A DNA stretch of 24,000 nucleotides from an uncultured Rubritalea sp. (GTDB lineage Bacteria > Verrucomicrobiota > Verrucomicrobiia > Verrucomicrobiales > Akkermansiaceae), in contig CALJOJ010000057.1 in the NCBI GenBank assembly GCA_937981665.1, forward strand, positions 3,255 through 27,254, written 5' to 3'. The notes below the pieces were generated by a model, which saw only the letters and a program-made list of their open reading frames with translations, ran no database searches and was not told the origin of the DNA. A program made the position numbers and the translations under genes. Positions 761-23,006 of this stretch are shown one piece after another. How positions within the stretch are numbered: the stretch's first letter is position 1; each line of letters opens with the position of its first letter.

Positions 761-764
761 AGTT

Positions 765-2144: not shown

Positions 2145-2148
2145 AAAA

Positions 2149-3510: not shown

Positions 3511-3758
3511 AGTTTAGTGATGAAAAAATTTTCAAGATAGATCTATAACAGCCTTCCTTAGTATTAGTAAAGGAAATAAGGATATCTATATGTAAAACTT
3601 AAAGATATCTCATATATGACTCATTATTTTACCTATCGTGATAGTTCTTATTTTAGTTAGCCAAATAGCTAGGTTGAAAATAATTATGAATAAAAAGAGC
3701 GCATTTTTCATCTTAAGAGGTAACAATATTTTACAACATTAATATTCCTATATAAGCG

Positions 3759-4487: not shown

Positions 4488-4531
4488 TCTTGAATAAATA
4501 AATATAACATCGTTTACTTCGCTGTAATTAA

Positions 4532-6037
4532 ATGTTAGTAAATATTCCACTCTTCATCTATGCCTTCTGTAGTGCAGTTCTTATTCTATTCGGGCTGCAT
4601 CACTATTTTATGATCTTTCTCTTTTTTAAGAAGAAAAATGGCATCAAAGAAGATAACCAACGTACTGAAGAAGAAAATGCGATCACGGAGCAAAATGCCC
4701 CTGCAGTGCTATCACAGATCCCGCTCTACAATGAGCCTGCTGTAGCTGAGCGTGTGATCCGTGCTGTAGCTGAGATAGACTATCCGAGGCATCACATCCA
4801 GGTGCTAGATGACTCTACAGATGACTCTACTAAATTAGTAGACAAGGTAGTTTCTGAGCTACAGGAAAAAGGGATATCTATCGAAGTATTGCGCAGAGAA
4901 GGTCGCGCAGGCTTTAAGGCAGGCGCTCTTGACTACGGTCTGAAGAAAAATGATGCACCTTATGTTGCCATCTTTGACAGTGACTTCGTACCACCGAAAA
5001 ATTTTCTAGAACGAACGATCCCGCATTTCTTAACAAACAACAAATACTGCGTGGTGCAAGCCCGCTGGGGTCACCTTAACTCTGAAGAAAATGCCTTTAC
5101 CCGCGCCCAGAGTGTCGGTGTGAACGGGCACTTTGTCATTGAGCAAGTGGCGCGCTCATACAATGGATACTTCCTAAACTTTAACGGAACTGCTGGCATC
5201 TGGTCACGTGAGGCTATCACTGACGCAGGAGGGTGGAATGCGGACACTCTAACAGAAGACTTAGACCTCTCATACAGAGCACAGCTCAAGGGATGGAAAA
5301 TCCACTTCTTGCCTCACCTCGTAGTCCCCGCCGAGCTTCCATCCTTCTACCAAGCTTTCAGATCCCAACAGTTCCGCTGGGCAAAAGGTTCCATGCAGAC
5401 GGCTAAGAAACTTCTGCCCGTAGTATGGAAATCTGGCATCCCTGTTTCTAAGAAAATAGAAGCCTCATTCCACCTCACTCATTACTCTATCCATCTGTGT
5501 ATGTTCCTACAGGCACTCATGGCATTACCTATCATTTTGATCAATAAGAACTCATTTGATTCACAAGTAGTGGCATGGTTCGCGGCTCCGATGGCATTAG
5601 CAATGATAGGCCCGAGCTTACTCTATCTAGTAGCCGAACGTTGGCTGGATTCAGAGAAAGGAACCCTAAATTTTTTCAACCGCTTACCGATGCTTCTACT
5701 AATCGGTTTCGGTATCTGCCTGAGTAACGCAAGAGCATGTGTCGAAGGACTCATCGGCATCAAGTCACCATTTGTTAGAACTCCGAAGAAAGGTGATCAC
5801 CAGTCGATGACTAAATTCATGGATCTAGGTAAGGGAAGTATTATGCCGATACTTGAGATAAGTATGGCGTTGCTCACCCTCGTGACGGCAATTGTTTACT
5901 ATAATAAAGACTCTGCTGCTATCATCCCGTTCTTCCTTATCTACTCCTTTGGATTCGCCATGTTTGGTTACAGAAGCATCACGGGTGGCATAGAAAAAAA
6001 CACTGTTAAAAAAACCGCCAAACGCTTTAAGACTTGA
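4532..6037 (+). CDS. Processive family-2 glycosyltransferase (CslA/BcsA/MgdA-like membrane beta-glycan or glycolipid synthase)
   Basis: One N-terminal TM helix, a GT-A domain with LDDSTDDST, FDSDF and TEDLDLS, and QQFRW (QxxRW) at 5366-5380. Several C-terminal TM helices follow. Confidence 0.85.
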   Translation: MLVNIPLFIYAFCSAVLILFGLHHYFMIFLFFKKKNGIKEDNQRTEEENAITEQNAPAVLSQIPLYNEPAVAERVIRAVAEIDYPRHHIQVLDDSTDDSTKLVDKVVSELQEKGISIEVLRREGRAGFKAGALDYGLKKNDAPYVAIFDSDFVPPKNFLERTIPHFLTNNKYCVVQARWGHLNSEENAFTRAQSVGVNGHFVIEQVARSYNGYFLNFNGTAGIWSREAITDAGGWNADTLTEDLDLSYRAQLKGWKIHFLPHLVVPAELPSFYQAFRSQQFRWAKGSMQTAKKLLPVVWKSGIPVSKKIEASFHLTHYSIHLCMFLQALMALPIILINKNSFDSQVVAWFAAPMALAMIGPSLLYLVAERWLDSEKGTLNFFNRLPMLLLIGFGICLSNARACVEGLIGIKSPFVRTPKKGDHQSMTKFMDLGKGSIMPILEISMALLTLVTAIVYYNKDSAAIIPFFLIYSFGFAMFGYRSITGGIEKNTVKKTAKRFKT

Positions 6038-8052
6038 AGCTAAGAGAAATAGTTTGGCTTGTTCTCGCTGTAATCATAGCTGTGCTATGCTACTGCTATG
6101 CATCTTACACGCCAGATTTTGATAGCTATGGAACTCCACGAGTTATCCTAGGAGTGCTTATAGGAATAGTAGGCTTGGCGATGGTCTTCATCTTCCCTAA
6201 TGTTTCTAACAAGAAGGCAATCATTCTCATTCTAGCCATCGCGGCGATCACTCGTTTAGCTATTTTCCCCACTGGAGCATCAGACGATGTGAACCGTTAT
6301 CTCTGGGAAGGAAATCTCTATTCTCAAGGTATCAGCCCGTATAAAAATGTAGCTGAGCATAAGTCCTATATTCCCTATCGTGATCAGTTCTATGAGGAAA
6401 TGAACCATAAGGATAAGCCCACTGCTTACCCTCCATTCGCTCTACATTGCTTTAGTATGATCAATAAAATCGGCTATAACCCGAGCAGTTATAAGATCGT
6501 ATTCCTGCTGTTAGACTTACTGGTTATCGCTACCATTTTGGCATTATTACGCCACTATCATCGGCCTATTCAATGGTCACTACTTTATGCGTTGAGCCCT
6601 ATTTCGTTATTATCTTTTGCTGCTGAAGGTCACTTTGATGTGGTGATGGTTCTATTTCTAACCGCTTCTATTTTATGTATGACTAAGCGATGGATCATCC
6701 CGTGCGGTATCGCTGTGGGGCTCGCCATTTCTGTAAAAGTCATGGCCGCTGTGGTCGCGCCTATCATTCTTTTGAAGACAGGTTGGAGAGGGATCATCGT
6801 AGGCATTATTGTCAGCCTCCTGCCACTAGCACTCTACTATGATGATAGTTTACAGATGGCTCAGGGTATTCTTAAATTTGGATCTAACAGATTTAATGGC
6901 CCGGCTAATCAATTTTTTGTACAGGCCCTTGGCTTCTCTACAGAGTATGCGGGGGCTCTCTGTAAAGTTCTCTTCTTTACCTCATGGGGTATAGGATTCT
7001 GGCTCTGCATTAAGCATAAATTCTGGGTAAGTATCAACCTCTGTCTGGGAAGCCTTATCTTCTTCTCCCCTATTATTCACTTCTGGTATCTCTCATGGTT
7101 ACTGCCATTCATTGCTCTTCGTCCGTCACTGCCGTGGATCACCATGTCCATCACCATGCCCCTCTACTTTACTGTGTGGACGCAGTTTGAAAACACTGGT
7201 GAATGGGCTATGCCTGTCTGGGCGCGCTGGCTATTCTGGACACCATTTATCCTCGCCTGCATCATGCATCTTCCACGTCACGTGATCTCCATGTTCTATG
7301 CCATCACCCGACCTACATCTAACAGAAAAGAAAATGAGAGGTTACATTGGTCAGTAATCATCCCTACGCTAAGCATCGATGTTAGACTCAGAGAACTCAT
7401 TCTAAAACTAGAGAAACAGAGCATAGTGCTGGACGAAATAGTCATCGTGTATTCTTCTGATGAAGACGTGAGCGATGAGTTAAAATCCGAGTATTTTCAT
7501 ATCAAAATGATCCATTCTCCTAGAGGGCGAGGGCTACAAATCAAGACGGGTGTGGAAGCTGCGCAGATGGACTGGTGCCTTATTCTCCATGCAGACAACC
7601 AGCTACAACTAGACACATTCAGTAAGCTTAATGCAGCTATCCAGGTGAATGCCGACATCGTAGGCGGCAGCCTCGGTCAGCGCTTCGACCGTCACGCTCC
7701 AGGGCTACTACTTATAGAGAGCATGAATGACTTCCGAGCCAGTTTACTACAAACTAGCTTTGGGGATCAGAACCAGTTTTTACATCGCGAGACGGCGATT
7801 AGCAATAACGTCCTCACCGATCAGCCCTTGATGGAAGACATAGAAATGAGCGACAGGCTGAGACTGCAAGGCGACACCTTACATCTCGCCCATGAGAGCA
7901 CAGTATCAGCCGAGAAATGGAAGAAGAAGACGTACTGGACACGCTTCTTCACCATCGTTGGCTTCTATTTTAAATACCGTATACTGTTTTACTCAGCCCG
8001 TAAACGCGCGGACTTGAGCAAGATGTTTTATAAAAAGTATTACCTACGATAA
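6034..8052 (+). CDS. Fusion protein: N-terminal polytopic GT-C-like (DUF2029/PMT/PIG-V-like) membrane domain plus C-terminal TIGR04283-like GT2 domain (rSAM/selenodomain-associated transferase 2; arsenosugar-associated glycosyltransferase)
   Basis: Residues 1-430 contain more than 10 hydrophobic helices and an acidic loop motif, GASDDVNRYLWEG (starting at 6280), after early TM helices, as in GT-C enzymes. For the C-terminal domain see the separate feature at 7345-8049. The start is TTG at 6034, overlapping the upstream TGA. Confidence 0.75.
   Translation: MKLREIVWLVLAVIIAVLCYCYASYTPDFDSYGTPRVILGVLIGIVGLAMVFIFPNVSNKKAIILILAIAAITRLAIFPTGASDDVNRYLWEGNLYSQGISPYKNVAEHKSYIPYRDQFYEEMNHKDKPTAYPPFALHCFSMINKIGYNPSSYKIVFLLLDLLVIATILALLRHYHRPIQWSLLYALSPISLLSFAAEGHFDVVMVLFLTASILCMTKRWIIPCGIAVGLAISVKVMAAVVAPIILLKTGWRGIIVGIIVSLLPLALYYDDSLQMAQGILKFGSNRFNGPANQFFVQALGFSTEYAGALCKVLFFTSWGIGFWLCIKHKFWVSINLCLGSLIFFSPIIHFWYLSWLLPFIALRPSLPWITMSITMPLYFTVWTQFENTGEWAMPVWARWLFWTPFILACIMHLPRHVISMFYAITRPTSNRKENERLHWSVIIPTLSIDVRLRELILKLEKQSIVLDEIVIVYSSDEDVSDELKSEYFHIKMIHSPRGRGLQIKTGVEAAQMDWCLILHADNQLQLDTFSKLNAAIQVNADIVGGSLGQRFDRHAPGLLLIESMNDFRASLLQTSFGDQNQFLHRETAISNNVLTDQPLMEDIEMSDRLRLQGDTLHLAHESTVSAEKWKKKTYWTRFFTIVGFYFKYRILFYSARKRADLSKMFYKKYYLR
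7345..8049 (+). other. TIGR04283-like GT2 domain inside the 672-aa fusion protein
   Basis: Segment HWSVIIPTL...IVIVYSSDED...SPRGRGLQIKTGVEAAQMDWCLILHADNQL...SFGDQNQFLHRE...PLMEDIEMSDRL...SAEKWKK. It matches my recollection of the family consensus (IIPT.NE, GRa.QmN.Ga, lfLHaDt, yGDQ, lMEDie...Rl). Confidence 0.7.
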
Positions 8053-10610
8053 AGGAATGCGTCTGATGTTACCAGTGAAGTAATGAGAGCTTTCATACTG
8101 CCATCGTTATCGCGGTAAGCTTTATGAGCTGCTTTCAATACCGGAGCGTCATGCAAGGTTTCGTTTCTACCCATCCAGTAGCGGAAGGCGTGGCGGACGA
8201 AGACCTGTTCTACGCGCTCACTCTTGGCTAGCTTGTTGATCATTTCAAACGCATCTTTGACAGGGCCATCTAGTGCGGGATCACCGGAGTCAATGATTCT
8301 GCCGCTAGTGTCCACTGGCTTACCATGCTCAAAGTCGCGAAAAATCCCCATGTGATTATACATCTCAAAGGTGAGGCCTAATGGGTCCATTTTTTCATGG
8401 CAGCTAATACATTGCTTTTCTCGTGTGATACGCATGCGTGAGCGTAGTGTGGTGCCCGGTTCATCTGGAAGCTGAGCATCCACTGTAATAGGAACATCTG
8501 GAATGCCACCACCTAACAGACGCTCGCGCACCCATATGCCACGGTGAATAGCGTGGTTATCCATAGCGTCTGAGTGTGAGACTAGCCAAGATGGAGTGGT
8601 GAGGATGCCGAGACGCTCACCTTTAGGAGCATTGGTAAGAATACGCTCTGCCGGCATCGATCTTAAGCCTAATGTAGGCCTTGTCATGCGGGCATAAATA
8701 GGCTCACCTGTTAAATCAGCATGATTAACTTTTGGCGTTTTTAGAACAGCCAAGTCACGGCGATAGGCCGCTGAGGTATTAGACTTGTTACGTATGTCAA
8801 AGACTTGTTTATAGAGTTCTCTCCACCTCTCGCTGCCTTTACTAGCTCTATTAGCCTCAGTGGTTAGTTTTTTCTTTTCATTTATTAGCTGTTGAGTCCG
8901 TGCGTTGGCTCTGTCATAATTTACATTCCAACTGTCGATTTTTTGTTTCGATAGTTTCGCCTCTTGCTCGGTAAACATCTTACCGTAGAAAACGATATCG
9001 TCTGGTGAAGCGACTACTTTCTGCGTAGTGAGTAGCTGATTGAGTACATCTTTATCTTCCTCAAGAATAAACTCCACGAGACGATCCGTACTGGCAGAAG
9101 CGCCAAACATAGATTTACTAAGTTGTTCAGTATCATGGTTTATACCTGCCTCCTTTAAGGCTTCAGCGTCTTTATCGTTATATCCTGCTAGATCATAGTC
9201 AAAATATTCGCGGAAAAACTGAAGCACACGTGGCTTTCTAAGCGTGTCATCATTTAACATGCGGGTAAGCTCACGCTTTACATCTTCTTTGGTACGCATC
9301 TTACCATTGACAATTGCTTTACGTAATGTGGCATCGGGCTTGATGTAGCTTAGTGCATGGTTCACCGCTAGCCCTAGTTCCCAGTCTTGTAACATCACTC
9401 TACCGTGTTCATCCGTAGTATTTCCTGTACCCAGCTCAGAGCGGAACAGTGCATCTCTATCGAGAAATATCGCAGATAGCCCTACGATTACTCCTTCTTT
9501 CTTACCTAGCTTCGCGATCGTATTTTCGACTAGTTTCATGTACTTACTGGTCTCTGTATCCGTAGGAGGACGGAAGGTGAGCCTCTCAAAGAGGTCAGCC
9601 ACTACATGACGTAACTCTTCTTCTGTATACTCTTTCTCTACATCTTGGAGCAGATGATAAAGTGGGGTTTCTGGTCGGTGAAATTTAGTACTATAAGTGA
9701 GTGATGATGCAAGACCGCGGTCATCTTCTCTCTCTCGTTTGAGCTGGTGTTCCGTGGGATCATCAGTGATCTGATCTGGTGTGCTTGAAATGCTAATAGG
9801 CCCGAATGCAGCATACCTGAGCAGGCGCTGAGCTTTATCTAAGATCTGCATCGTCTCCGCGCTATTCACGCTCGCTTGGTCTGCGTAGTTCTCGATACCA
9901 TGTTGATGCATGGATGACAGCACACTCGGAGTGCTCGTGATAGCGGTCACATAGGCCACGCTACCACCAGACCAGTTGATGATATTATCAAGCCCGTAAT
10001 ATAGCTTCAGCTCCCCTGCATGGTTCACTGGGATAGCATCTCCATGAGTACGATACCCTGGCTTGTTAGGATCGTACTTAGGTTCGGTGTTGATGAGCTC
10101 ATTTAGTCTTGTTAGATGCTCGCTAGGTGTTACTCGCCAGATTCTTCTAGGAGATGCGGTAGGCTCTAACTTTATGTCCTTTGGTAGCTCATTAAAGAGC
10201 AGATCATGATCTACGAAGTTTCCTCGCTTCGCTTTCTGATGATCATGAAATCCTCCTTTATGTTTCATCAAGGTTTCCATGTTAGAAACGATGCCGTGGT
10301 TAAATTTTAGTCGTTCAATAATTTCTGGTTGTTCCTCATCTTTTGGAGGCATTTCCTTCAGAGCTACTTGAGCCCAGATAGACTTCCATTGTTCTGCGTT
10401 GGTCTCATCAAGCTGTCCCAGGTCATCCATGTTGAAACCACCTTTTTTTGAGCCATCTCCATGACAATCAAAACAATAGTTCTCTAGGAAATCGGTAGTG
10501 AAGGCTTGGTAATCTTTGATAGTACTATGCCCAGGGACATAGTTTTCCTGCGCGCTGATCGAGGAGAACGGCGATACCGCTACTATTAAAAATGTGCTGA
10601 TTATTTTCAT
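8040..10610 (-). CDS. DUF1592/DUF1588/DUF1585-family protein (planctomycete-type PSD/PSCyt domains), exported, with two CxxCH motifs
   Basis: Signal peptide MKIISTFLIVAVSPFSSISA-QE. CFDCH at 10461-10475 in the context NYCFDCHGDGSKKGGFNMDD. CISCH at 8397-8411 in the context CISCHEKMDPLGLTFEMYNHMG, the DUF1588 hallmark. It is paired with the upstream DUF1552 gene, as this family typically is. Confidence 0.85.
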   Translation of the reverse strand: MKIISTFLIVAVSPFSSISAQENYVPGHSTIKDYQAFTTDFLENYCFDCHGDGSKKGGFNMDDLGQLDETNAEQWKSIWAQVALKEMPPKDEEQPEIIERLKFNHGIVSNMETLMKHKGGFHDHQKAKRGNFVDHDLLFNELPKDIKLEPTASPRRIWRVTPSEHLTRLNELINTEPKYDPNKPGYRTHGDAIPVNHAGELKLYYGLDNIINWSGGSVAYVTAITSTPSVLSSMHQHGIENYADQASVNSAETMQILDKAQRLLRYAAFGPISISSTPDQITDDPTEHQLKREREDDRGLASSLTYSTKFHRPETPLYHLLQDVEKEYTEEELRHVVADLFERLTFRPPTDTETSKYMKLVENTIAKLGKKEGVIVGLSAIFLDRDALFRSELGTGNTTDEHGRVMLQDWELGLAVNHALSYIKPDATLRKAIVNGKMRTKEDVKRELTRMLNDDTLRKPRVLQFFREYFDYDLAGYNDKDAEALKEAGINHDTEQLSKSMFGASASTDRLVEFILEEDKDVLNQLLTTQKVVASPDDIVFYGKMFTEQEAKLSKQKIDSWNVNYDRANARTQQLINEKKKLTTEANRASKGSERWRELYKQVFDIRNKSNTSAAYRRDLAVLKTPKVNHADLTGEPIYARMTRPTLGLRSMPAERILTNAPKGERLGILTTPSWLVSHSDAMDNHAIHRGIWVRERLLGGGIPDVPITVDAQLPDEPGTTLRSRMRITREKQCISCHEKMDPLGLTFEMYNHMGIFRDFEHGKPVDTSGRIIDSGDPALDGPVKDAFEMINKLAKSERVEQVFVRHAFRYWMGRNETLHDAPVLKAAHKAYRDNDGSMKALITSLVTSDAFLYRR

Positions 10611-10628
10611 CGTTTCAGTAGAAATAAA

Positions 10629-12035
10629 TTAAGCTAGAACCTCGCGTAGAGGGCCGCTGCTAGCGTCAAATTTCCCTGCAAGACTCTCGGACATGTTATA
10701 TCTTTCAACAGTGTTCTTTCCGCAGCCAGTCATGAGTGAAGCGTAGAGAGAGTTGATAGGTCTACTTCCATCAAGTTTAGTCAGCCTACCGGTTTTAAAG
10801 GCTCCTCCTGGATTCCCTATGAGCATCATCGGCCAGGTTTTTCCTGTGGTGTGTTGCTTGTCTGCATTGTTAGAAGTATAGACGATGAGTGTGTTGTCCA
10901 TCATCGTGCCGCTACCTTCAGGAACACTTTCAAGCTCTTCAATGACCTTAACGAGCATTTCCATATTATAAGCGCGGATTTTATCCCAAATTGGATTTCT
11001 ATACTGCTGCATGTGGCCTAGGTTATGCCCTCGCTGCTGGATACCTAGACCTGTATATGAACCAAAAATTTGACCACGACCAGAAGCCATAGTGAGGACA
11101 TTTGTAGTGCCTGACTTTAGAGTGGAGATACCTAGGTCTAACAAGACATCATGCCAGTCTGTCTCAGACTCTGGAGCTCTGTAGCGGCTGTCCACTGTAG
11201 GGGCAAATTTTCGTAAGTGATCTTCGGCGCTGGCGAGCTTATCACGGAGCGTATTCATGTCTTCGAAGCCATTGATAAACTGATTATATCGTTCTCTATC
11301 TCCAGATGGCAAAGCCTCAGCATTGCCCTGAGCTATTTGATGGATATTACCTAACAACGCGGTCTGCACGTCATGCTGAGTGCGTAAGTCTCCAGTGGCT
11401 ATCCCGCCGTAGAGATGCTTATAGAGATGCTCTGGATTAGAGTGCATGAAGATCGGTTTTCCTGCACCAGAGGCAGAGAGTCGTGCTACGGTTGGCTTGG
11501 CCTTCATTGCTTCTAGAGAGTCCATACCGATGCAGAGATGAGGGAGTAAGCTCGTTGGCATAAGTTGGCTTAGATCATGGTCAATAGTTGAGCCACTAGG
11601 CAGCATGCCATCACCACTACGGTAGCCACCTAGAGCACCAAAAAAGGCGCTGTGCGTGGGGCTTGTGTGTTTGCCGTGCAGGCCTGTGATGATATGGAGC
11701 TTATCTTTGAAAGGGTCTAAGGCTTGGATCGGCTTTGGTAAAACAGCGCCGGCTAGCGAGCCATTATTTCCCGCCATTTTCGTAGGTAGGCAAGTGCGTG
11801 GGTCAAATCCTTGGTTCTGAAGAAAGAATACGACACGTTTAGGTCCACCTATGCTTCCTGGCTGAGCCACTCCCGCCTGAGCAAGCTGAGCTAAGAGTCC
11901 GGAGCTAGCACCAACACCAGCACCGAATAGTGAAGTCTTCGCTGCTGCTCCCAAGCTACCAATCAGCGTTTTCAATGACTCTCTGCGTGTTAGTTCCTTC
12001 ATAAGAATTAATTTAATAAGTGATGATAGCCTCAT
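10629..12035 (-). CDS. DUF1552 domain protein with twin-arginine signal
   Basis: Tat-like [17 protein letters not shown] near the N-terminus. The protein is about 450 aa and sits immediately upstream of the DUF1592 partner with an 18-nt gap. The true start may be the ATG at 12002 ([11 protein letters not shown]), which gives a more standard Tat leader. Confidence 0.85.
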
Positions 12036-12210
12036 CTAGTTACATTAAGCCTATCTATTCCTATACATACGGAGGTTCATGGCGGATATTTCATGCCAAT
12101 GGCGAAATGTAGAGGAGCCTAATAGATCACATTACAGTTAACAAAGCCTCTATTAGGATAGGATGGTCTTTCCGAGTTCCAACGGAACGGGCTATGTTAG
12201 GTAATAGAGT

Positions 12211-12232
12211 AATAAAAGAGGTCTGAAAGACC
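12211..12232 (-). terminator. Weak candidate terminator after the ars operon
   Basis: On the minus strand the sequence is GGTCT-TTC-AGACC followed by TCTTTTATT. The stem is only 5 bp. Confidence 0.3.
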
Positions 12233-12248
12233 GCGCTAAGACCGCGCT
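12227..12248. repeat. Perfect tandem duplication of an 11-nt unit (aagaccgcgct x2)
   Basis: Read directly: 12227-12237 and 12238-12248 are identical. The first copy overlaps the small hairpin at 12220-12232. Confidence 0.9.
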
Positions 12249-12312
12249 GATAGGATCCAGCATGTTCATTTTAGAGGGATAAATCACCCTAAACAACTAG
12301 CCGTAATGACGC

Positions 12313-12969
12313 TTACTCCCAGAGCCTACCACCAAGTACTTCTGCAGCGTGATCCAGGTCTGACTCGGTGTCTACATCACGGAGTGCTTCGAATAGCTTT
12401 AGTGAGTTTCCAGCTGTGCGTAAACGCTTAGCTGACATTTCTAAAACGGTGTCTGTGCTCCACTCGATGTCATGATACATCTCAGGGTGAACAGCTTTTA
12501 CGCCAGCCATAACGTAGCCGCCATCTAAGGCTGGGGTGAATGCTACATTGTGGTCATCAAGAGCTCTGACGGTAGCTTCTATGTGAGCGGGAGTGATGGC
12601 CGGGCAGTCGGTGCCGATAATGAGTGCCTTCTTAACTCCTTCAGTGAAGCTGGCTTCAATGGCGGACTGCATTTTTAAGCCTAAGTCCCCTTCTGCCTGC
12701 CGCTGCCAGTGCGCACTGCCTAGCCATTCCGTGACATCGGCATCTGACCCTCCAGCTACGTGAAACCTTAGCTGGATAGAGTCCAGATGCGGTAGAGTCT
12801 TATCTAACAGATGCTGCACCATGGCACGGTGGAGCTTACATGATGCTTCATTTCCAATGCTGGCGCCGAGCCTGGTCTTCACCTTTCCTGGCTCAGGAAA
12901 TTTTGTCATAATGACGAGGTGTGTCACTTGATTTTTACAAGCTTCGTCACTTATGAAATTTTCTAACAT
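12313..12969 (-). CDS. TIGR04282/DUF2064 family protein (rSAM/selenodomain-associated transferase 1; arsenosugar-associated glycosyltransferase)
   Basis: N-terminal hallmark LVIMTKFPEPGKVKTRLG. Also IGTDCP, and about 200 aa of nucleotide-diphospho-sugar-transferase-like length. It is the last gene of the arsM-arsS-arsC operon, 21 nt after arsC. Confidence 0.8.
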   Translation of the reverse strand: MLENFISDEACKNQVTHLVIMTKFPEPGKVKTRLGASIGNEASCKLHRAMVQHLLDKTLPHLDSIQLRFHVAGGSDADVTEWLGSAHWQRQAEGDLGLKMQSAIEASFTEGVKKALIIGTDCPAITPAHIEATVRALDDHNVAFTPALDGGYVMAGVKAVHPEMYHDIEWSTDTVLEMSAKRLRTAGNSLKLFEALRDVDTESDLDHAAEVLGGRLWE

Positions 12970-12990
12970 TGAGCAATAAAGTCTAACAGT

Positions 12991-13425
12991 TTATTGGTTT
13001 TGATGCGTTAGCTCATCGACATAAAGCTCAAATTTCTCCGATATCTGATCACGAATTCTTCTAAACTCATTTTCCACTTCTTCAGGAGATCCTTCTGCAT
13101 CTGCAGGATCATCAAAGCTCCAGCAGTAGTGATTTTTCTCACCTTTGAAGGTAGGGCAGCAGCCTTCTGCATTATCACAAACGGTGATGACCGTCTCTAC
13201 CTCACCATCGATGAACTCATCGAGATGCTTGCTCTTGTGATCTGAGATATCGATGTTTATTTCTGACATCACCTTCTGTGCTAATGGGTGGACGTAGCCG
13301 GAGGGCTTAGCACCAGCACTCTGCACATCATAGAGGTGACCTACCTTGTGCTTGAGATAGCCTTCTGCCATATGGCTACGGCAGGAATTTCCGGTACAGA
13401 GTACTAGTATCTTTGGTTTATTCAT
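12991..13425 (-). CDS. arsC: Arsenate reductase, LMW-PTP/thioredoxin-coupled type
   Basis: P-loop LCTGNSCRSHMAEG (CX5R). Downstream Cys cluster ITVCDNAEGCCP matches the Cys82/Cys89 region of Staphylococcus/Bacillus ArsC. Length 144 aa. Confidence 0.9.
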   Translation of the reverse strand: MNKPKILVLCTGNSCRSHMAEGYLKHKVGHLYDVQSAGAKPSGYVHPLAQKVMSEINIDISDHKSKHLDEFIDGEVETVITVCDNAEGCCPTFKGEKNHYCWSFDDPADAEGSPEEVENEFRRIRDQISEKFELYVDELTHQNQ

Positions 13426-13438
13426 GATTTGAAAATAT

Positions 13439-14383
13439 TTAACTCACTTTTCCTCCACAGCTACTACCTTTACCAGCAGTACAGCCGAAGCAATGGTTCG
13501 CGGTAATGATGTCTACGTCCTTCATGTCATCTGGAGCTATGTCCCAGAGGTAGAGTGGTTTTTCTTTCTTGAGCTGGTAGTTTAACATCTGGTTAAAGTC
13601 ACAGTCGTAGACTTCACCTTCGTAACCGATGTTTAGCGTGTTTCTACACATCAGGCCTTCTATTGTGGCTGGGTTATAGCTGTTAGAGAGGAGTTCCATG
13701 TAGTCATCGTACTCACCACGCTCCTTGAGATACGCCGTGTAGCGAGTCACTGGGATGTTAGCGAGCGCGAATAAGCGGGTGAATTCTACGCCGTAGCGCT
13801 TCTTAAGTTCCACTTTGTAGTCTTTTTCTAAATCATCCTGATCTGGCGGCAGTACCGCATCAGTAGGATTATAGACTAGTGTGAGAGGAAGCTTAGTTCC
13901 GTAGCCAGCAGCATTTAGCTTCTTCAGCGCACTGATAGACTTCTGGAAAACTCCATCACCACGTTGGCCATCTACATTATCCTCAAGATAACATGGTAGC
14001 GATGCTACGATCTCTACCTCATGCTTAGCCAGGTACTCAGGCAGATAAGCATGCGCCTTAGTCTCGATGATGGTGAGGTTATTACGGTCGATAACATGCG
14101 CACCTACTGATTTAGCCGTCTCCACGAAGTAGCGGAAAAATTCACTAATCTCAGGTGCACCACCGGTGATGTCTACCACCTTAGGCTTATGCTCCTTGAT
14201 CCATGCCCCCACTTTGTGTGCGCACTCCTCGTCCATCATTTCGGTTCTCCAGGGAGAAGCCTCTACGTGGCAATGAGAGCACGTTTGGTTACATTTTCGG
14301 CCTACATTGATCTGTAGAGTGTCGAAGGTTCCTCGCTTGAGCACCTGATCGTGCTCGCGTAGCTTCGCTTGAAAGTTAATCAT
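13439..14383 (-). CDS. arsS: Arsenosugar biosynthesis radical SAM protein ArsS (radical SAM/Cys-rich domain family), all-Cys form
   Basis: Radical SAM motif C31-x3-C35-x2-C38 (GRKCNQTCSHCH). C-terminal Cys-rich tail NHCFGCTAGKGSSCGGKVS. It sits between arsM and arsC with 37-nt and 13-nt gaps. Confidence 0.85.
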   Translation of the reverse strand: MINFQAKLREHDQVLKRGTFDTLQINVGRKCNQTCSHCHVEASPWRTEMMDEECAHKVGAWIKEHKPKVVDITGGAPEISEFFRYFVETAKSVGAHVIDRNNLTIIETKAHAYLPEYLAKHEVEIVASLPCYLEDNVDGQRGDGVFQKSISALKKLNAAGYGTKLPLTLVYNPTDAVLPPDQDDLEKDYKVELKKRYGVEFTRLFALANIPVTRYTAYLKERGEYDDYMELLSNSYNPATIEGLMCRNTLNIGYEGEVYDCDFNQMLNYQLKKEKPLYLWDIAPDDMKDVDIITANHCFGCTAGKGSSCGGKVS

Positions 14384-14420
14384 TATTTTTGTTAGATTAG
14401 GCTGTTAGACCGTTAATATA

Positions 14421-15581
14421 CTAGCAGCATCCATCAGTAGCACAGCAGTCAGAAGCGACTGTTGTGGCTTTATATTCCATGCCCTTTGTCTCTCTTGCAT
14501 GACGTGTCGTGTCACGTGAGCAGTCAAATTCTACAGCTTCTTCGAGTGGTATTTCTGTGCGTGGCGCGATGATCTCAAAATGATCTTTATACGGTGCCTG
14601 CTGGTAGAGATTATATGTCTTATCACATACTGCATAGCTCTGTCCGCGCTTCATCGTGTGGCCATCGTCATCACTGACCTGGCTGAATGGACCTTTGTAC
14701 ATGACTGCCTGATTACGCTCTAGACATGGGCCTTCCTTACCTTTCCAGGCACGGATCGTGACACTGCGGAATTCTATTCCCTCGACAGTCTGCCACGGCT
14801 CAGAATCACGCTTTAAAATTTCAATACCATAGAAACCTGCGTCTTCAAATGCCTTCACGAAGCCTTCTTCGGTGTATGCACCACTGATGCAGCCACTCCA
14901 GAGGTATGGGTCATCTGCTAAGTGCTTAGGGATCTCTTCATCACTGACGATGTCAGAAATGACAGCTCTGCCACCCTTTTTGAGAACACGGAAAAGCTCT
15001 TCGAACATCTGCGCCTTGAGGTCTTCTTCTACGAGATTTAAAACACAGTTAGAGACGACTACGTCTATGCTGTCAGATTCCACGAGTGGTTTCTTCTGGC
15101 TCAGCTCCTTAGTGATGACGTCTAGCTCCATCCAGCTATTAGCATCCTTGATAGGCTTGACTGCTATTTCCTGTTCTAACAGATCAAGGTTTAGCGCGAG
15201 GTCCTGAATACGTCCTTTTCTAAATTCCACATTCGCGTAGCCCACCTTCTCAGCAATGATCGGTGCGTTACGGTTAGCTACTTCAAGCATGTCATCCGTC
15301 ATATCAATGCCGATGACCTTACCTTCCGCACCCACTACCTGAGAGGCAATGAAACAGATCTTACCCGTACCAGAACCGAGATCTAGAACTACATCTCCAG
15401 ATTCCACATACTTTGATGGGTCACCACAGCCGTAATCCTTCTCTATCACTTCACTAGGAATGATCTTTAAGTACTGGGGATCATAATCTACAGGACAGCA
15501 AAGTGCTGGTTCTGCGGCTTCTGCGGCTGCTGCATATCTATCGCGGGTCGCCTCTTCGGACGTTGATATTGTGTCTGACAT
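14421..15581 (-). CDS. arsM: Arsenite S-adenosylmethionine methyltransferase
   Basis: SAM motif VVLDLGSGTGKICF. The ArsM-type conserved cysteines are present: ALCCPVDY, DYGCGDP, VSNCVLNL and WSGCISGA. There is a C-terminal domain ending in the Cys-rich tail SDCCATDGCC. Confidence 0.9.
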   Translation of the reverse strand: MSDTISTSEEATRDRYAAAAEAAEPALCCPVDYDPQYLKIIPSEVIEKDYGCGDPSKYVESGDVVLDLGSGTGKICFIASQVVGAEGKVIGIDMTDDMLEVANRNAPIIAEKVGYANVEFRKGRIQDLALNLDLLEQEIAVKPIKDANSWMELDVITKELSQKKPLVESDSIDVVVSNCVLNLVEEDLKAQMFEELFRVLKKGGRAVISDIVSDEEIPKHLADDPYLWSGCISGAYTEEGFVKAFEDAGFYGIEILKRDSEPWQTVEGIEFRSVTIRAWKGKEGPCLERNQAVMYKGPFSQVSDDDGHTMKRGQSYAVCDKTYNLYQQAPYKDHFEIIAPRTEIPLEEAVEFDCSRDTTRHARETKGMEYKATTVASDCCATDGCC

Positions 15582-15748
15582 AATAATTGGAATATTAAGA
15601 TTATCTATATAGAGTGAGGTTCGCCCGTCAAATTTATTCCCAAAATATGAAAAGAGTTGATTTTAATTTATATTGTTTAGATATCAGATTACCATAACTG
15701 TTCTTGACTAAATGATTCATTATCACTGACATTGTTGAAGATCCGACG

Positions 15749-17011
15749 ATGACTACGTTTAGTAAACTAATTCAAAAACCAGAAAATGCGCTTATTCTAC
15801 AGGCGGACTGGGAAGGCGGGATTACGCATGTCGCTAATGATCTCATTGATAATGGGGTAAATGTGACCAAAGTAGTGCTAAATGCAGCTGATTGGATATA
15901 TACCAGAAAAGAATTACCTACAGTGAGTTATGATCATCCTTTTGAAGAGTTCGAGTCATGGCTACGTTGTTATATTGCAGAAAATGGTGTGGATTGCATT
16001 ATTTTGTATAATCAGTACCGACCATATAATAAAGTGGGCTGGGATCTCGCTGAAGAACTGGGGATTCAATGTGTTGTATTAGAGCTGGGCTTATTGAGAC
16101 CTGATTTCTGTACTATTTACACGCGAGATTTTGACCATTTTACCTATTTAGCTGAGCAGTGGGGTCGTGTTATGAGTGGTGAAATTTCCCCAGAAAAATC
16201 TGTTGATAATCAGCGCCTTGCGAGAATGCGCACAACGGCCAAAATGAAGCAATTCGCTGCCTTCTTTTTGTTTTCTCGTTTGATGGCTATTATTTTCAGA
16301 CGTTATACTCATTACATTGACCAGCGAGGACAGGGGATTTGGCATCATTTATATGCGGCGGTAGTTTCGGGGCTTCGCTATCAAGGACGGATGAAGGATG
16401 ATCGCTATAATATAAAGTTTTCCTCCGAGTGGAATGGAGCATTCTACTTTGTCCCTCTGCAGGTGCATACGGATAGCCAGATCACCCAGCGCTCTCAGTT
16501 CACTTCGATCGATTACTTTATTGATGATGTCGTAGCATCGTTTTTAAAGCACGCTCCTAAGGGGACGAAGCTTGTATTTAAGGTGCATCCCATGGATCGA
16601 GGGTATAAGGATTACCATAAGAAGATCAAGGCGATCAATCAGTCTATAGGTGGTAAGAAGAGGATTTATTATGTGGATCGAATCAACCTTCCACTAGCTC
16701 TGGAACATTGCAGAGGATGCATCACTATCAATAGTTCGGTGGGGTTATCTGCATTGATCCATAGTAAAAAAACGATCTGTCTCGGTGAGGCTGCATATAA
16801 TCTAGCGAAGCTTACTTATCAAGGTGAACTGGCAGACTTCTGGAGGTCAGACTTTGAGCCGAAAAAGAAGGATGTAGAATACTTTATTAATCTACTGAAG
16901 CTGACATCTCAGGCTCACGGGGTTTTATTCCAGAGGCTGTATAGCGCGAAAGGAAACTGTAAAATTATTTGGCCTCAATTGTTCTCCCATATTTTCCATA
17001 AGGAAAAGTAA
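15749..17011 (+). CDS. KpsS/LpsZ-like capsule polysaccharide biosynthesis family protein (Capsule_synth domain; lipid-linked beta-Kdo transferase homologue)
   Basis: Motifs resemble KpsS/KpsC. VVLELGLLRPDF compares with FEEGYLRP. FYFVPLQVHTDSQI compares with the VPLQV..DSQ motif. GCITINSSVGLSALIHSKKTICLGEAAYN compares with vvTiNStvG.EAL..GKPV...G.A.Y. Confidence 0.75.
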   Translation: MTTFSKLIQKPENALILQADWEGGITHVANDLIDNGVNVTKVVLNAADWIYTRKELPTVSYDHPFEEFESWLRCYIAENGVDCIILYNQYRPYNKVGWDLAEELGIQCVVLELGLLRPDFCTIYTRDFDHFTYLAEQWGRVMSGEISPEKSVDNQRLARMRTTAKMKQFAAFFLFSRLMAIIFRRYTHYIDQRGQGIWHHLYAAVVSGLRYQGRMKDDRYNIKFSSEWNGAFYFVPLQVHTDSQITQRSQFTSIDYFIDDVVASFLKHAPKGTKLVFKVHPMDRGYKDYHKKIKAINQSIGGKKRIYYVDRINLPLALEHCRGCITINSSVGLSALIHSKKTICLGEAAYNLAKLTYQGELADFWRSDFEPKKKDVEYFINLLKLTSQAHGVLFQRLYSAKGNCKIIWPQLFSHIFHKEK

Positions 17012-17038
17012 TAGGTAGTGGCTCTGGTTGGTATTAGA

Positions 17039-18169
17039 TTAGAAATTTCTGTTAGGTGATGCAACGCTCGTGATAGTGCGCTCCAGCGTGCTGACAAATT
17101 CTTGGGCTATATCAGTCCATTGGCATTGGAGGATACTCTGGTGAGCTAGTGACTTCATTGTGCTATTGTCCTTATTCTGGATTGCTTTTAGAAGCTTTGA
17201 GCTTAGTTCTGAAATGTCAGCAGGGGGAGCAGTGTAGCCGTTTTCTCCATCAGTGATGAGATTGCCAGCGGCTGCGTAGCTATAGGCTACAGTGATGAGT
17301 CCAGAAGCGAGTGACTCTGTGATGACATTACCAAATGTTTCCGTCTCACTGGCAAAGAACATCACATCTGCGGATGCATAGTACTCAGCTAGTCGCTCAC
17401 CTTTAAGTACTCCAGCCCAGTGGTAAGCATTTGATGAGTATTTAGCTTCCAGGCTTTTCCTCAGTGGACCTTCTCCTACGATGACGGTTTTTATATTCAG
17501 AGAGCTGTCTAAGCTCGCGATGCTCTCTAGCGCAGCTGTTAGATTCTTCTCTTTAGCTATACGCCCTACGATGATGATCACGCAGTCTGCATCATTTACT
17601 CCCCATGAGGCCCTGAGCTCTGAGGATCTTTTCTCTGGGGAGAAGCGCTCTGTGTTGACGCCTCTTCCTATCACACTAAGATTTCTAAATCCCTGCGTAT
17701 GAAGAAGATCATAGGTGTGCTGAGATGGCACGATGGTGGCGTCACAGTAGTTATGGATGGCGCGTAGTATTCCCAGAATAGGGCGCTCGACTTGAGGAAT
17801 GAAATAGCGCTTTAAGTACTGATGAAAATTTGTATGGAAGCCAGCGACTACGGGTATATCTAGGTGGCGAGCCACCAGCATAGCGGAGATACCGAGGAAG
17901 CCTTCTGTGGCTACGTAGATGATATCTGGTCGTTGCTTGTTCCAAATCCCTCGCAACTTAAATGGCCGAGGGTAGCCGATCTTGACATCTTTATAAAAAG
18001 GGAAACGGAAGCCAGAGACGCTCGTTTCATAGTCTGCAGAAGTCTCGCCTGTATGGATCACATGCACGGTGTGTCCAAGCTGCAACATCGAGCGAGTGAG
18101 GCGTTGAAGTGTCAGCGCTGCTCCATTGATGTCAGGAGAATAGGTGTCTGTCACTATGGTTACATTCAT
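17039..18169 (-). CDS. Family-4 glycosyltransferase (GT-B fold, group 1)
   Basis: N-terminus MNVTIVTDTYSPDINGAALTL. Mid motif GFHTNFHQY. C-terminal nucleotide-sugar binding region FFASETETFGNVITESLASGL (EX7E-like). Confidence 0.85.
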   Translation of the reverse strand: MNVTIVTDTYSPDINGAALTLQRLTRSMLQLGHTVHVIHTGETSADYETSVSGFRFPFYKDVKIGYPRPFKLRGIWNKQRPDIIYVATEGFLGISAMLVARHLDIPVVAGFHTNFHQYLKRYFIPQVERPILGILRAIHNYCDATIVPSQHTYDLLHTQGFRNLSVIGRGVNTERFSPEKRSSELRASWGVNDADCVIIIVGRIAKEKNLTAALESIASLDSSLNIKTVIVGEGPLRKSLEAKYSSNAYHWAGVLKGERLAEYYASADVMFFASETETFGNVITESLASGLITVAYSYAAAGNLITDGENGYTAPPADISELSSKLLKAIQNKDNSTMKSLAHQSILQCQWTDIAQEFVSTLERTITSVASPNRNF

Positions 18170-20847: not shown

Positions 20848-21408
20848 ATGAGTGAAAAATCTTCAATCGCAGATGAGCAGTTGCTTATTAGACGCAGCCA
20901 AAGTGGAGACTTGGACGCCTTTGGTGAACTTGTGCGTATCCACCAAGTGTGGTTACGTGGATGGCTACGCGGCCAGCTAACAGACTGGACTGTAGCTGAT
21001 GATCTAGCTCAGGAAACATTTGTTACGGCACTCAAGAAGATAAAACAATACCGTGGTGATGGACGCATCGAGTCTTGGCTACGTTCTATCGCTCATAATT
21101 ATTTACGGAATTATATCCGTAAGCACAGAGCCGTTTCTGTAGGTGGTGTTGATGAACTACAACATTTAATAGTATGTGATGAAGGTGAGCTTGCTGACTC
21201 ATCAAGCGCTTCTTTGGAGGCTCTTCGTGATTGTCTTGCTAATGTAAGAAATCCAGCTAAACGGTTGCTCGAAGAACGTTATCAGCACGGTAAATCAGTC
21301 AGGGAAATGGCTATAGACGAAGATATAGGCTATTCTGCGATGACGATGAAACTACATCGGCTACGCAAATCTCTTGCTACTTGTATCGAAAATAAACTTA
21401 CTCCTTAG
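20848..21408 (+). CDS. ECF-type sigma-70 family RNA polymerase sigma factor
   Basis: Region 2 (FGELVRIHQVWLRGWLR...DDLAQETFV) and a region 4 helix-turn-helix (SVREMAIDEDIGYSAMTMKLHRLRKSL). Length 186 aa. The anti-sigma gene follows 5 nt downstream. Confidence 0.85.
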   Translation: MSEKSSIADEQLLIRRSQSGDLDAFGELVRIHQVWLRGWLRGQLTDWTVADDLAQETFVTALKKIKQYRGDGRIESWLRSIAHNYLRNYIRKHRAVSVGGVDELQHLIVCDEGELADSSSASLEALRDCLANVRNPAKRLLEERYQHGKSVREMAIDEDIGYSAMTMKLHRLRKSLATCIENKLTP

Positions 21409-21413
21409 AATAA

Positions 21414-23006
21414 ATGAACTCTATAGAATTTGATAAACTATTAGCTCTTGTCATAGCAGATGAGGCGTCTGGTGATGAAGTTAAGCAGCTTATAGATGCG
21501 ATGAACAATGATCGGTCACTGTTACTAGAGGCTAGGTATCATTTCCAGCTACATGGTCAGCTGGGTGTCGCTTTAGAGAGTGAGTTCTCTAGAGAGAAGG
21601 CTCTATCTATGATAAAATCGGAGATCGAGATAGGGGATGCTGAGGAATTTACCCAGAGAGTAAGTCGAAAAATTCATCGCCAACTATGGATCAAGAGAGC
21701 AATGATGGCAGCAGCAGTGATGTTGATTGGTATCTCCAGCGTTTTGTTTGTTTCTCAGTTTTCAGCTAATGATGATGCTCCAGAGAATCTATCAGCAGTC
21801 GCTTCTGTGACAGCGATCAGTGGTGTACAGTGGCTTGATGATGAATATAAAGAAGGTGATTCTATTATTTCTGGTCAGAAGGTTAGGTTTGGTTCTGGCT
21901 TACTAGAGTTAGATCTTGGAGGGAGAGGGAGCTTGGTTATTGAGGGGCCCGCTCATTTAGATTTCACATCAGCTATGGAATCTGTGCTGCACAGAGGTAG
22001 TCTGGTAATGCGGGCTACTGAACAAGGGCACGGTTACACAGTAAAAACGTCTCAAGGTAGCGTGGTAGACCTAGGTACGGAATTCGCAGTTTCTGTGAAC
22101 GCAGATAACTCGGTGGAGACGCATGTGATAGAGGGCTCAGTCGAGGCTATAGCATATGATGGCACCTCAGTGACTCTGAAAGCAAATGATGCTCGCAGAT
22201 TCAATGAGACGAGTGGGCAGGCTATTCCGGCAGATATAGGGAAATTTTATACAAGCATGCCTCCCACTCAGCAGAAATATAAATACGCTCACTGGAGCTT
22301 CGATGAGAACGAGGGTGACCTAGCACAAGCTTCTGGTGAACTTGGCGAGTCCGAGAGCGTGAACAAAGATCTCGTTTTATACGCAATCGATGAAGGAGTG
22401 AAGCCTAGATGGACGAAAGGCATGAAAAATTCTGGAATTTATTTTGACGGTAAAGGTGGCTTTGCTCAGAGTGAATATCAAGGAATTCAAGGCGGAAAAG
22501 CACGTACTGTTTGTTGCTGGGTTAAAGTACCTGAAGACTTTTTGGCCGCTCAAGGATATGGTATTATTTCATGGGGTAAGCCAACCAAGCTTGGGGAAAC
22601 ATGGCAAATTTCTGTGAACCCGGATTCTCAGGATGGCAAAGTAGGGACATTACGACTAGGTTTATTAGGTGGACATATTATAGGCTCTACTGATCTCAGA
22701 GACGGGGATTGGCATCATATCGCTGTGGTTCTATACGGAGGATCTAGTCCAAATGTAGGGACCCACGCACTACTCTATGTAGATGGTAAGCAAGAAGCTG
22801 TCTCACGTGCTTCACTCCAAGAGGTGAAGACAAACTCAAGCAACGGCGATTACGGAGTCTGGCTAGGACGCAATGTAACCTACAGAAAGAACGCTCGAAA
22901 TAAGAGCCGTAATCCTAAAAGATTTTTCCGTGGTGGCGTAGATGAGCTTTATATATTCGATTCTGCTATTTCAGAGACTCAGATACAAGAGTTGATGAAA
23001 AGGTAG
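21414..23006 (+). CDS. Anti-sigma factor-like membrane protein with FecR and LamG (concanavalin A-like) domains
   Basis: A cytoplasmic N-terminal domain, then a single TM helix (AMMAAAVMLIGISSVLFV). A FecR-like beta region follows (GSLVIEGPAHLDF...VVDLGTEFAVSV...HVIEGSVE). The C-terminal LamG signature is HWSFDENEGD, GIYFDGKGGFA, GDWHHIAVV, LYVDG and VDELYIFDSAISETQIQ. Confidence 0.8.
   Translation: MNSIEFDKLLALVIADEASGDEVKQLIDAMNNDRSLLLEARYHFQLHGQLGVALESEFSREKALSMIKSEIEIGDAEEFTQRVSRKIHRQLWIKRAMMAAAVMLIGISSVLFVSQFSANDDAPENLSAVASVTAISGVQWLDDEYKEGDSIISGQKVRFGSGLLELDLGGRGSLVIEGPAHLDFTSAMESVLHRGSLVMRATEQGHGYTVKTSQGSVVDLGTEFAVSVNADNSVETHVIEGSVEAIAYDGTSVTLKANDARRFNETSGQAIPADIGKFYTSMPPTQQKYKYAHWSFDENEGDLAQASGELGESESVNKDLVLYAIDEGVKPRWTKGMKNSGIYFDGKGGFAQSEYQGIQGGKARTVCCWVKVPEDFLAAQGYGIISWGKPTKLGETWQISVNPDSQDGKVGTLRLGLLGGHIIGSTDLRDGDWHHIAVVLYGGSSPNVGTHALLYVDGKQEAVSRASLQEVKTNSSNGDYGVWLGRNVTYRKNARNKSRNPKRFFRGGVDELYIFDSAISETQIQELMKR

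Follow-up and report, generated by a model that had tools for sequence, protein, structure and literature searches.

A stretch of 24,000 nucleotides from an uncultured Rubritalea sp. (assembly GCA_937981665.1, contig CALJOJ010000057.1, positions 3,255 to 27,254), here called the window, carries on its minus strand four genes that encode an ArsM-type S-adenosylmethionine (SAM) methyltransferase, the radical SAM protein ArsS, an arsenate reductase (ArsC) of the low-molecular-weight protein tyrosine phosphatase (LMW-PTP) type and a DUF2064 protein (Table 1). The first-pass annotation, made from the letters alone, had described these genes as a compact co-directional set with gaps of 37, 13 and 21 nt, and both the list of open reading frames (ORFs) and the sequence itself match this description exactly. 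The order methyltransferase-ArsS-ArsC-DUF2064 is also present in three close relatives (loci L001 and L002, which represent one ArsS protein on an NCBI contig and on a Logan contig, and locus L089), and because it recurs there, the arrangement is not a product of chance; partial versions of it are found across phyla. The closest named homologs come from Rubritalea sp. (87% identity for ArsS, 83% for the methyltransferase), followed by Haloferula and Luteolibacter, and together with the PSCyt, DUF1552 and PEP-CTERM genes of the window they support the earlier suggestion of a probable host within the Planctomycetes-Verrucomicrobia-Chlamydiae group. The host is a marine verrucomicrobium near Rubritalea, and the operon is genuine. 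We read it as belonging to the known ArsM/ArsS arsenosugar-type system, with a probability of roughly two in three (0.68); arsenate (As(V)) would be reduced to arsenite (As(III)), methylated to trivalent dimethylarsenic (DMAs(III)) and converted to 5'-deoxy-5'-dimethylarsinoyl-adenosine (DDMAA), after which glycosyl steps would follow.

The limits of the operon were inferred from gene spacing, since promoter and terminator matches were not enriched. A promoter scan of the divergent intergenic region returned two hexamer pairs on the minus strand, not above shuffled sequence, and the spacer behind the DUF2064 gene contains a weak terminator-like hairpin (12232..12220), of a kind that is likewise no more frequent than in shuffles.

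Table 1. Genes and borders of the arsenic operon and of the second gene module in the window.
Feature	Position	Strand	Length	Basis or remark
Methyltransferase gene	15581..14421	minus	386 aa	ORF list and sequence
Radical SAM gene (ArsS)	14383..13439	minus	314 aa	ORF list and sequence
LMW-PTP ArsC gene	13425..12991	minus	144 aa	ORF list and sequence
DUF2064 (TIGR04282) gene	12969..12313	minus	218 aa	ORF list and sequence
Divergent intergenic region, presumed operon promoter	15582..15748		167 nt	5' of methyltransferase gene; position only
Spacer after DUF2064 gene, probable operon end	12036..12312	minus	277 nt	inferred
GT-C::TIGR04283-like fusion protein	6034..8052	plus	672 aa	N-terminal GT87/MptA_B type, about 11 transmembrane helices
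Membrane GT2 glycosyltransferase, CelA/PgaC type	4532..6037	plus	501 aa	Pfam GT2 families
DUF547 protein, N-terminal signal-peptide-like sequence	3759..4487	plus	242 aa	Pfam, 71.6 bits
Pyridine-nucleotide-disulfide-family flavoprotein	2149..3510	minus	453 aa	Pfam Pyr_redox_2, 155 bits
NapH-like membrane 4Fe-4S ferredoxin-type protein	765..2144	minus	459 aa	Pfam Fer4 families

The radical SAM protein passes the equivalog cutoff of the ArsS family TIGR04167 with 426.2 bits against 300, over profile positions 2-302 of 303, and its next-best radical SAM family reaches 41 bits. A score below that cutoff, or a grouping with another radical SAM clade, had been set beforehand as the outcome that refutes the assignment, and the protein instead proves to be a clear member of the ArsS family. 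Pfam recognizes DUF3641 (179.7 bits) and Radical_SAM (30.6 bits) in it. The CX3CX2C motif is made up of C31, C35 and C38, and the C-terminal domain contributes C246, C261, C298, C301 and C309; the motif cysteines as well as C298, C301 and C309 are invariant in alignment A1. C309 lies within GSSC, which fits the GxxU motif given for the selenoprotein members of the family, with a cysteine at the selenocysteine position. Verrucomicrobial members already bear the NCBI name "arsenosugar biosynthesis radical SAM (seleno)protein ArsS". Papers that cite Cheng 2021 and Xue 2019 describe cyanobacterial ArsS as moving the 5'-deoxyadenosyl group from SAM onto DMAs(III), which yields DDMAA. As its score lies above the equivalog cutoff, the ArsS of the window would be expected to adenosylate DMAs(III) to DDMAA.

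The methyltransferase was originally annotated as an ArsM with all of its conserved cysteines. The cysteines are indeed in place, but all curated ArsM cutoffs are missed. C28/29, C52, C179 and C231 correspond to positions 30, 54, 181 and 233 of BgArsM with an offset of 2, the structures 4FS8/4KW7 of CmArsM match the protein with an E value of 9e-33 and with the equivalents of Cys72, Cys174 and Cys224 aligned, and Pfam Methyltransf_31 (106 bits) marks the SAM-binding Rossmann domain. Among the NCBIfam models, the best is NF040538, the arsinothricin-type ArsM, at 353.5 bits (cutoff 500), followed by NF008823 at 201.7 (cutoff 263) and NF038099, the cyanobacterial arsenosugar ArsM, at 145.4 (cutoff 400), with the match to the latter broken into two stretches. 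Judged by these profiles, the methyltransferase is not of the cyanobacterial arsenosugar ArsM type. The Rubritalea homolog is named at NCBI merely as a "methyltransferase domain-containing protein". ArsS-linked methyltransferases of other phyla share 48-83% identity and a C-terminal CC..CC tail with the window protein, which thus represents the usual non-cyanobacterial partner of ArsS. Its C-terminus (14421..14465) reads SDCCATDGCC, and 117 of the 120 closest homologs, including ones unlinked to ArsS, have three to four cysteines in their last 14 residues. By analogy with the RCCLKC tail of ArsL, these terminal cysteines may serve to bind arsenic or to hand it off.

The scores of the methyltransferase bear on two alternative readings. 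The first is that reaction order or substrate differ from those in cyanobacteria, such that the methyltransferase acts after ArsS has adenosylated As(III) or trivalent monomethylarsenic (MAs(III)); the much closer match to the arsinothricin ArsM model than to the cyanobacterial one would suit this, as would the methylation by BgArsM of AST-OH(III), an organoarsenical that already has one C-As bond. Yet BgArsM is described as typical of As(III) methyltransferases and as accepting a broad range of trivalent substrates, ArsS has been demonstrated on DMAs(III), and the methyltransferase subfamily occurs as a solitary gene, and we regard an altered order as quite improbable. The second alternative, that the cluster makes an arsinothricin-like amino-acid arsenical and not a ribosyl arsenical, has NF040538 as the best model of the methyltransferase for its sole support. 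Against it, the ArsS protein has no match to NF040542 (ArsL) at E <= 1e-3, its C-terminus is ...CFGCTAGKGSSCGGKVS with no RCCLKC, and the window has no ArsQ-like permease. With the radical SAM enzyme being ArsS and not an ArsL with an RCCLKC tail, and with ArsQ missing, this reading is effectively refuted by the family scan and was rejected.

For the annotation of ArsC as an LMW-PTP arsenate reductase, the catalytic residues of the thioredoxin-coupled type are present, but the equivalog cutoff of TIGR02691 is missed (129.9 bits against 174.3). The protein aligns over its full length with Bacillus subtilis ArsC (1JL3, E 7e-27) and with pI258 ArsC (1LJL). The C10-X5-R16 loop in CTGNSCRS, C83, C89/C90 and the aspartate in FDDPA (104-108) are all conserved, and they correspond to the CX5R P-loop, the Cys82/Cys89 cascade cysteines and the Asp105 general acid. 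The assignment of the DUF2064 protein to TIGR04282 holds without such reservation, at 187.6 bits against a cutoff of 134. This protein also has a secondary full-length match to the CofC family TIGR03552 (E 2.4e-11) and is matched by the Protein Data Bank entry 3CGX, a "putative nucleotide-diphospho-sugar transferase" (E 1e-24); in sequence, it thus resembles CofC-type nucleotidyltransferases.

The four genes had been taken for the whole unit, which turns out to be too narrow, as the stretch 765..8052 of the window holds a TIGR04283-like partner, from the second of the partner families, together with four more conserved genes (Table 1). In L001, L002 and L089, the next genes after DUF2064 are convergent ones for the fusion protein, the GT2 glycosyltransferase and the DUF547 protein, and the DUF547 gene is followed by the divergent pair encoding the flavoprotein and the iron-sulfur (Fe-S) protein. 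These relatives are close, with ArsS of L001/L002 87% and the methyltransferase of L089 95% identical to the proteins of the window. A blastn comparison with L089 gives collinear blocks with breakpoints at window positions 12311 and 8042, so that the sequence between them (8043..12310), which carries DUF1592 and DUF1552 genes, is additional and divides the cluster. This block of 4.3 kb is missing at this place in the three closest relatives, in which the two gene sets lie 7-75 nt apart. The cluster is ancestrally contiguous and was split here by a lineage-specific DUF1592/DUF1552 insertion. On the minus strand, the region between operon and module (8040..12035) encodes a DUF1592/PSCyt protein of 856 aa and a DUF1552 protein of 468 aa; a search for repeats flanking the block, as a sign of a mobile insertion, found only short matches at chance level. 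In L089, the closest relative, the ArsS gene (1635-2487) is called as only 99 aa. The idea that it is a truncated pseudogene was ruled out, as the gene is interrupted by a scaffold gap of 100 N.

The linkage of ArsS with this module exceeds simple inherited synteny, because it is also found in other arrangements. In L086, where the surroundings otherwise differ, the methyltransferase-ArsS pair directly adjoins the fusion gene, and in Haloferula (L003) and Verrucomicrobiaceae bacterium 227 (L004), the order is ArsS-(ArsC)-DUF547-DUF2064::GT2, such that the DUF547 gene adjoins ArsS or TIGR04282. In two planctomycete loci (L037 and L074), an unfused GT87-like gene lies directly upstream of the methyltransferase-ArsS pair; GT-C genes are thus found beside this pair in two phyla, in both fused and unfused form. 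The array in L088 consists of genes for DUF547, a flavoprotein::Fe-S fusion, GT2, the fusion protein, a borderline APH-like kinase and DUF2064. In Verrucomicrobiaceae bacterium 227, the set ArsS-ArsC-DUF547-DUF2064::GT2 is chromosomal and has no adjacent methyltransferase gene.

The central protein of the module combines two glycosyltransferase domains. Its C-terminal domain (aa 440-649) matches TIGR04283, its sole family match, with 128.7 bits over positions 2-209 of 221, which misses the cutoff of 182; a homolog with 34% identity to the fusion protein is named "rSAM/selenodomain-associated transferase 2" by JGI. The domain is of the GT-A type, and its profile matches include DPMS, ArnC and GtrB. 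The N-terminal domain passes the Pfam cutoff for GT87 (35.4 bits against 25), and in the DD motif of its first loop, D85 is invariant and D84 nearly so. An AlphaFold2 model of the full fusion protein, built from an alignment of 44 sequences, has a mean predicted local distance difference test score (pLDDT) of 92.9 and a predicted template modelling score (pTM) of 0.93. A Foldseek search with this full-length model returned GT-A matches only, and the N-terminal domain was therefore modelled separately (pLDDT 94.3). That model matches ALG3, PimE, glycosylphosphatidylinositol (GPI) mannosyltransferase I (GPI-MT-I), ALG6 and ArnT with TM-scores of 0.5-0.64, and the N-terminal domain, as modelled, has a GT-C fold with an acidic first-loop motif. 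All five of these enzymes use polyprenyl-phosphate sugar donors.

The stop codon of the GT2 gene overlaps the start of the fusion gene by 4 nt, and in L001, L002, L087, L088 and L089 the GT2 gene invariably precedes the fusion gene directly; its product has sub-threshold NCBIfam matches to CelA and PgaC and about six predicted transmembrane segments. DUF547 is also present in L011, L037 and L088. The flavoprotein gene is syntenic in L001, L002 and L089 and paired there with the Fe-S gene, the product of which, in the window, has a sub-threshold NCBIfam match to NapH/MauN and about six predicted transmembrane segments. At 4147-6450 (plus strand) of L088, a Pyr_redox flavoprotein and a NapH-like 4Fe-4S protein are encoded as one protein of 767 aa. 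This fusion indicates that the two proteins work together, and, as it sits within the module of L088, it also indicates that the window genes at 765..3510 belong to the module.

The distribution of ArsS is wide. A scan for the ArsS pattern in one genome per species, with matches subsequently confirmed as ArsS relatives, yielded at least 599 species genomes with a confirmed ArsS relative. Among the matches listed, the 80 closest carriers of ArsS are all non-cyanobacterial and belong to Verrucomicrobiota, Planctomycetota, Acidobacteriota, Nitrospirota, Binatia, Proteobacteria, Omnitrophota and Fibrobacteria. The earlier view that a heterotrophic producer would be notable is weak in light of these numbers and of the arsenosugar names that verrucomicrobial proteins already carry at NCBI; a non-phototrophic carrier of such a cluster is ordinary at the genomic level.

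The neighbourhoods of ArsS were surveyed in 85 loci by iterated hidden Markov models, unsupervised clustering and NCBIfam, with families counted within 10 kb of ArsS. An ArsM-type methyltransferase is present in 36 of the 85 loci, TIGR04282 and TIGR04283 in 24 each, a MerA-like flavin adenine dinucleotide (FAD) oxidoreductase, itself a flavoprotein, in 21, DedA in 11, a TIGR04169 peroxidase-like protein in nine, a PiT-like transporter in eight, DUF547 in seven, methylthioadenosine (MTA) phosphorylase (MTAP) in six and an LMW-PTP ArsC in five, to which L089, added later, contributes a further case. Co-directional arrays exist, for example in L031 with ArsS, an OlsE-like protein, MTAP, TIGR04283 and DUF2064. 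The MTAP genes (L031, L059, L063, L067, L077 and L011) lie close to ArsS, at a median distance of 490 nt, and often share one array with TIGR04283 and DUF2064, and in L088 a borderline APH-family kinase gene (10033-11106) adjoins DUF2064. The MTAP genes near ArsS and the kinase beside DUF2064 suggest a ribose-1-phosphate intermediate after DDMAA.

Other neighbours recur in the surveyed loci. A transporter of the PiT-like phosphate (possibly arsenate) type is encoded between or beside the methyltransferase and ArsS genes in L012, L014, L025, L033, L046, L030, L052 and L072, and PstB genes are present in seven surveyed loci. These genes hint at a link to phosphate or arsenate uptake; neither a PiT-like transporter nor PstB is encoded in the window. 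An OlsE-like membrane protein of the fatty-acid-hydroxylase family is found beside ArsS, MTAP and TIGR04283 in six loci (including L031, L067, L028 and L070). The OlsE-like, DedA and MerA-like proteins would, by family, be lipid-related or redox partners of the ArsS loci.

Based on these observations, a pathway can be proposed for the operon and the module. ArsC would reduce arsenate to arsenite, as its intact catalytic residues suggest, and the ArsM-type methyltransferase would convert As(III) to DMAs(III), which is consistent with its four catalytic cysteines and its homology to CmArsM and BgArsM. ArsS would then place the 5'-deoxyadenosyl group of SAM onto DMAs(III), resulting in DDMAA. Gene context points to the subsequent removal of adenine from DDMAA, either by an MTAP-like phosphorolysis or by a nucleosidase together with a kinase, which would yield arsenoribose-1-phosphate. 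Context and fold make the CofC-like TIGR04282 protein a candidate for the nucleotide activation of this intermediate. The TIGR04283-like GT-A domain might transfer the arsenoribose, possibly onto polyprenyl phosphate, and on the periplasmic side the fused GT-C domain might pass it on to an acceptor. Reducing power may come from the flavoprotein/Fe-S pair, which could reduce the radical SAM cluster or a disulfide. Algae are known to contain an isoprenoid-linked arsenoriboside, phytyl 5-dimethylarsinoyl-riboside, for which the published pathway likewise invokes a nucleosidase step.

In its most extended form, the proposal is that marine heterotrophic Verrucomicrobia convert DDMAA, by MTAP or a kinase and then by the CofC-like TIGR04282 protein, to a nucleotide-activated 5-dimethylarsinoyl-ribose, and that the fusion protein passes this sugar via a polyprenyl-phosphate carrier to a periplasmic lipid or glycan, with an envelope-bound arsenosugar conjugate as the end product. 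This extension is speculative, and we consider it unlikely as it stands. If it were true, the cluster would contain the glycosidation enzymes that have long been missing from arsenosugar and arsenolipid biosynthesis, and it would point to a non-algal marine source of arsenosugar compounds. To our knowledge, ArsM and ArsS are the only defined enzymes of the arsenosugar pathway, the later steps having been hypothetical since the 1980s.

Several points weigh against assigning the window to the arsenosugar-type system. The methyltransferase falls below every curated equivalog cutoff and ArsC falls below its own, and we know of no reaction demonstrated for either TIGR04282 or TIGR04283, the names of which come from gene context. 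MTAP, nucleosidase and kinase genes are all missing from the window. The methyltransferase subfamily also occurs without ArsS, being solitary in Rubritalea profundi, and in Verrucomicrobiaceae bacterium 227, an ArsM-type homolog (P0181) is annotated on a plasmid, with ArsS on the chromosome. Similarly, L087 and L088 have the GT-C/GT2/DUF547 module with no ArsS within 8 kb, and the module may not be specific for arsenic. No report of arsenosugars from any verrucomicrobium was found in the searchable literature, which is incomplete; nor did that literature return anything relevant on arsenosugar production by heterotrophic bacteria or on ArsS surveys, an absence that, given such coverage, is not proof.

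Some of these points also bear on the possibility that the operon serves mainly in arsenic detoxification, with ArsC and ArsM lowering toxicity through reduction and methylation, with ArsS and the TIGR04282 protein only rendering highly toxic DMAs(III) harmless, and with the glycosyltransferase module making an unrelated envelope glycan. Resistance is the classical function of both ArsC and ArsM, the methyltransferase subfamily and the module both have representatives away from ArsS, as described above, and in this window the module and the operon are physically apart. On the other hand, Synechocystis arsS mutants are not arsenic-sensitive, and TIGR04282 and TIGR04283 co-localize with ArsS each in 24 of the 85 loci. 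Furthermore, TIGR04282 bridges the two gene sets, being part of the ars operon here and of the glycosyltransferase module in L088, and operon and module are contiguous in three close relatives. A primarily detoxifying role appears unlikely to us, even though it would largely predict the same chemistry as a biosynthetic one. The first-pass annotation had already argued for biosynthesis and against detoxification, from the lack of a pump and a regulator. Pfam and NCBIfam scans of all 19 genes of the window are indeed negative for ArsR, Acr3, ArsB and ArsA; this argument nevertheless fails, as absence within 24 kb cannot distinguish the two roles.

Beyond these 19 genes, the window has two ORFs of at least 70 aa, namely a pilin-like fragment at 2..268 and an ORF of 75 aa at 611..838, which partly overlaps the NapH-like gene; the family-model scans covered the 19 genes and not this ORF. 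The former is a type IV pilin-like N-terminal fragment on the minus strand at the left end of the window. Upstream of the operon, 15749..18169 holds a plus-strand gene for a KpsS-like capsule polysaccharide protein and a minus-strand gene for a GT4 glycosyltransferase. Because this flank is not syntenic with the relatives, the two probably have nothing to do with the arsenic genes. On the plus strand, 20848..23006 encodes an ECF sigma factor together with a FecR-like anti-sigma protein that has a Laminin_G_3 domain.

Arsenosugars and arsenolipids, which are attributed to algae and cyanobacteria, dominate the arsenic of marine food webs, and the window leaves this picture in place. The cluster type found here is already known and curated in databases, and the genetic potential of heterotrophs is already visible in public annotation. 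The value of the locus lies, consequently, not in its non-phototrophic host but in testable candidates for the steps after DDMAA. It offers a compact and probably tractable set, consisting of ArsC, ArsM, ArsS and TIGR04282 together with the fusion protein, GT2, DUF547 and the flavoprotein/Fe-S pair. This gene set, taken with the linkage of MTAP in other phyla, provides concrete candidates and a reaction order, and it gives reason to examine cultured Rubritalea and Luteolibacter for arsenosugar production.

Four known systems invite comparison. The Synechocystis arsM-arsS arsenosugar genes were reportedly described by Xue et al. in 2019, and the biochemistry of ArsS, it is said, by Cheng et al. 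in 2021. As in Synechocystis sp. PCC 6803, an ArsM-type gene immediately precedes a TIGR04167 ArsS gene in the same orientation, and ArsS has the radical SAM motif, the Cys-rich C-terminal domain and a predicted DDMAA intermediate. Unlike Synechocystis, the window has a methyltransferase of another ArsM subfamily (145 bits against the 400-bit cutoff), an operon that includes LMW-PTP ArsC and TIGR04282, a linked GT-C::TIGR04283 module, and a non-phototrophic verrucomicrobial host. A second comparison is with the arsenosugar neighbourhood of NCBIfam (TIGR04167, TIGR04282, TIGR04283, TIGR04169 and NF038099). ArsS and TIGR04282 of the window pass the respective models, a TIGR04283-like domain is present, and verrucomicrobial homologs are already so named. 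In contrast, TIGR04169, the MerA-like flavoprotein and DedA, common partners elsewhere, are missing from the window, its TIGR04283 domain is fused to GT-C and scores below the cutoff, and ArsC is included.

With arsQML of Burkholderia gladioli, the window shares an ArsM of the same subfamily, with the four cysteine positions offset by exactly 2 residues, and a radical SAM partner that uses SAM to make a C-As bond. The radical SAM enzyme of the window is, however, ArsS, which would transfer a 5'-deoxyadenosyl group, whereas ArsL transfers an ACP (3-amino-3-carboxypropyl) unit and has an RCCLKC tail; the ArsQ permease, moreover, has no counterpart in the window. Finally, the fusion protein pairs a GT-A domain that has profile matches to DPMS, ArnC and GtrB with a GT-C domain that resembles ALG3, PimE, ALG6 and ArnT in structure, which recalls systems that glycosylate in two steps through polyprenyl phosphate, such as ArnC/ArnT, DPMS/ALG3 and Ppm1/PimE. 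In the window, unlike in these pairs, both activities are fused in one polypeptide, and the link to arsenic is one of gene context. Set against these known systems, the in-operon ArsC, the non-cyanobacterial ArsM subfamily and the GT-C::TIGR04283 fusion are the variant features of this cluster.

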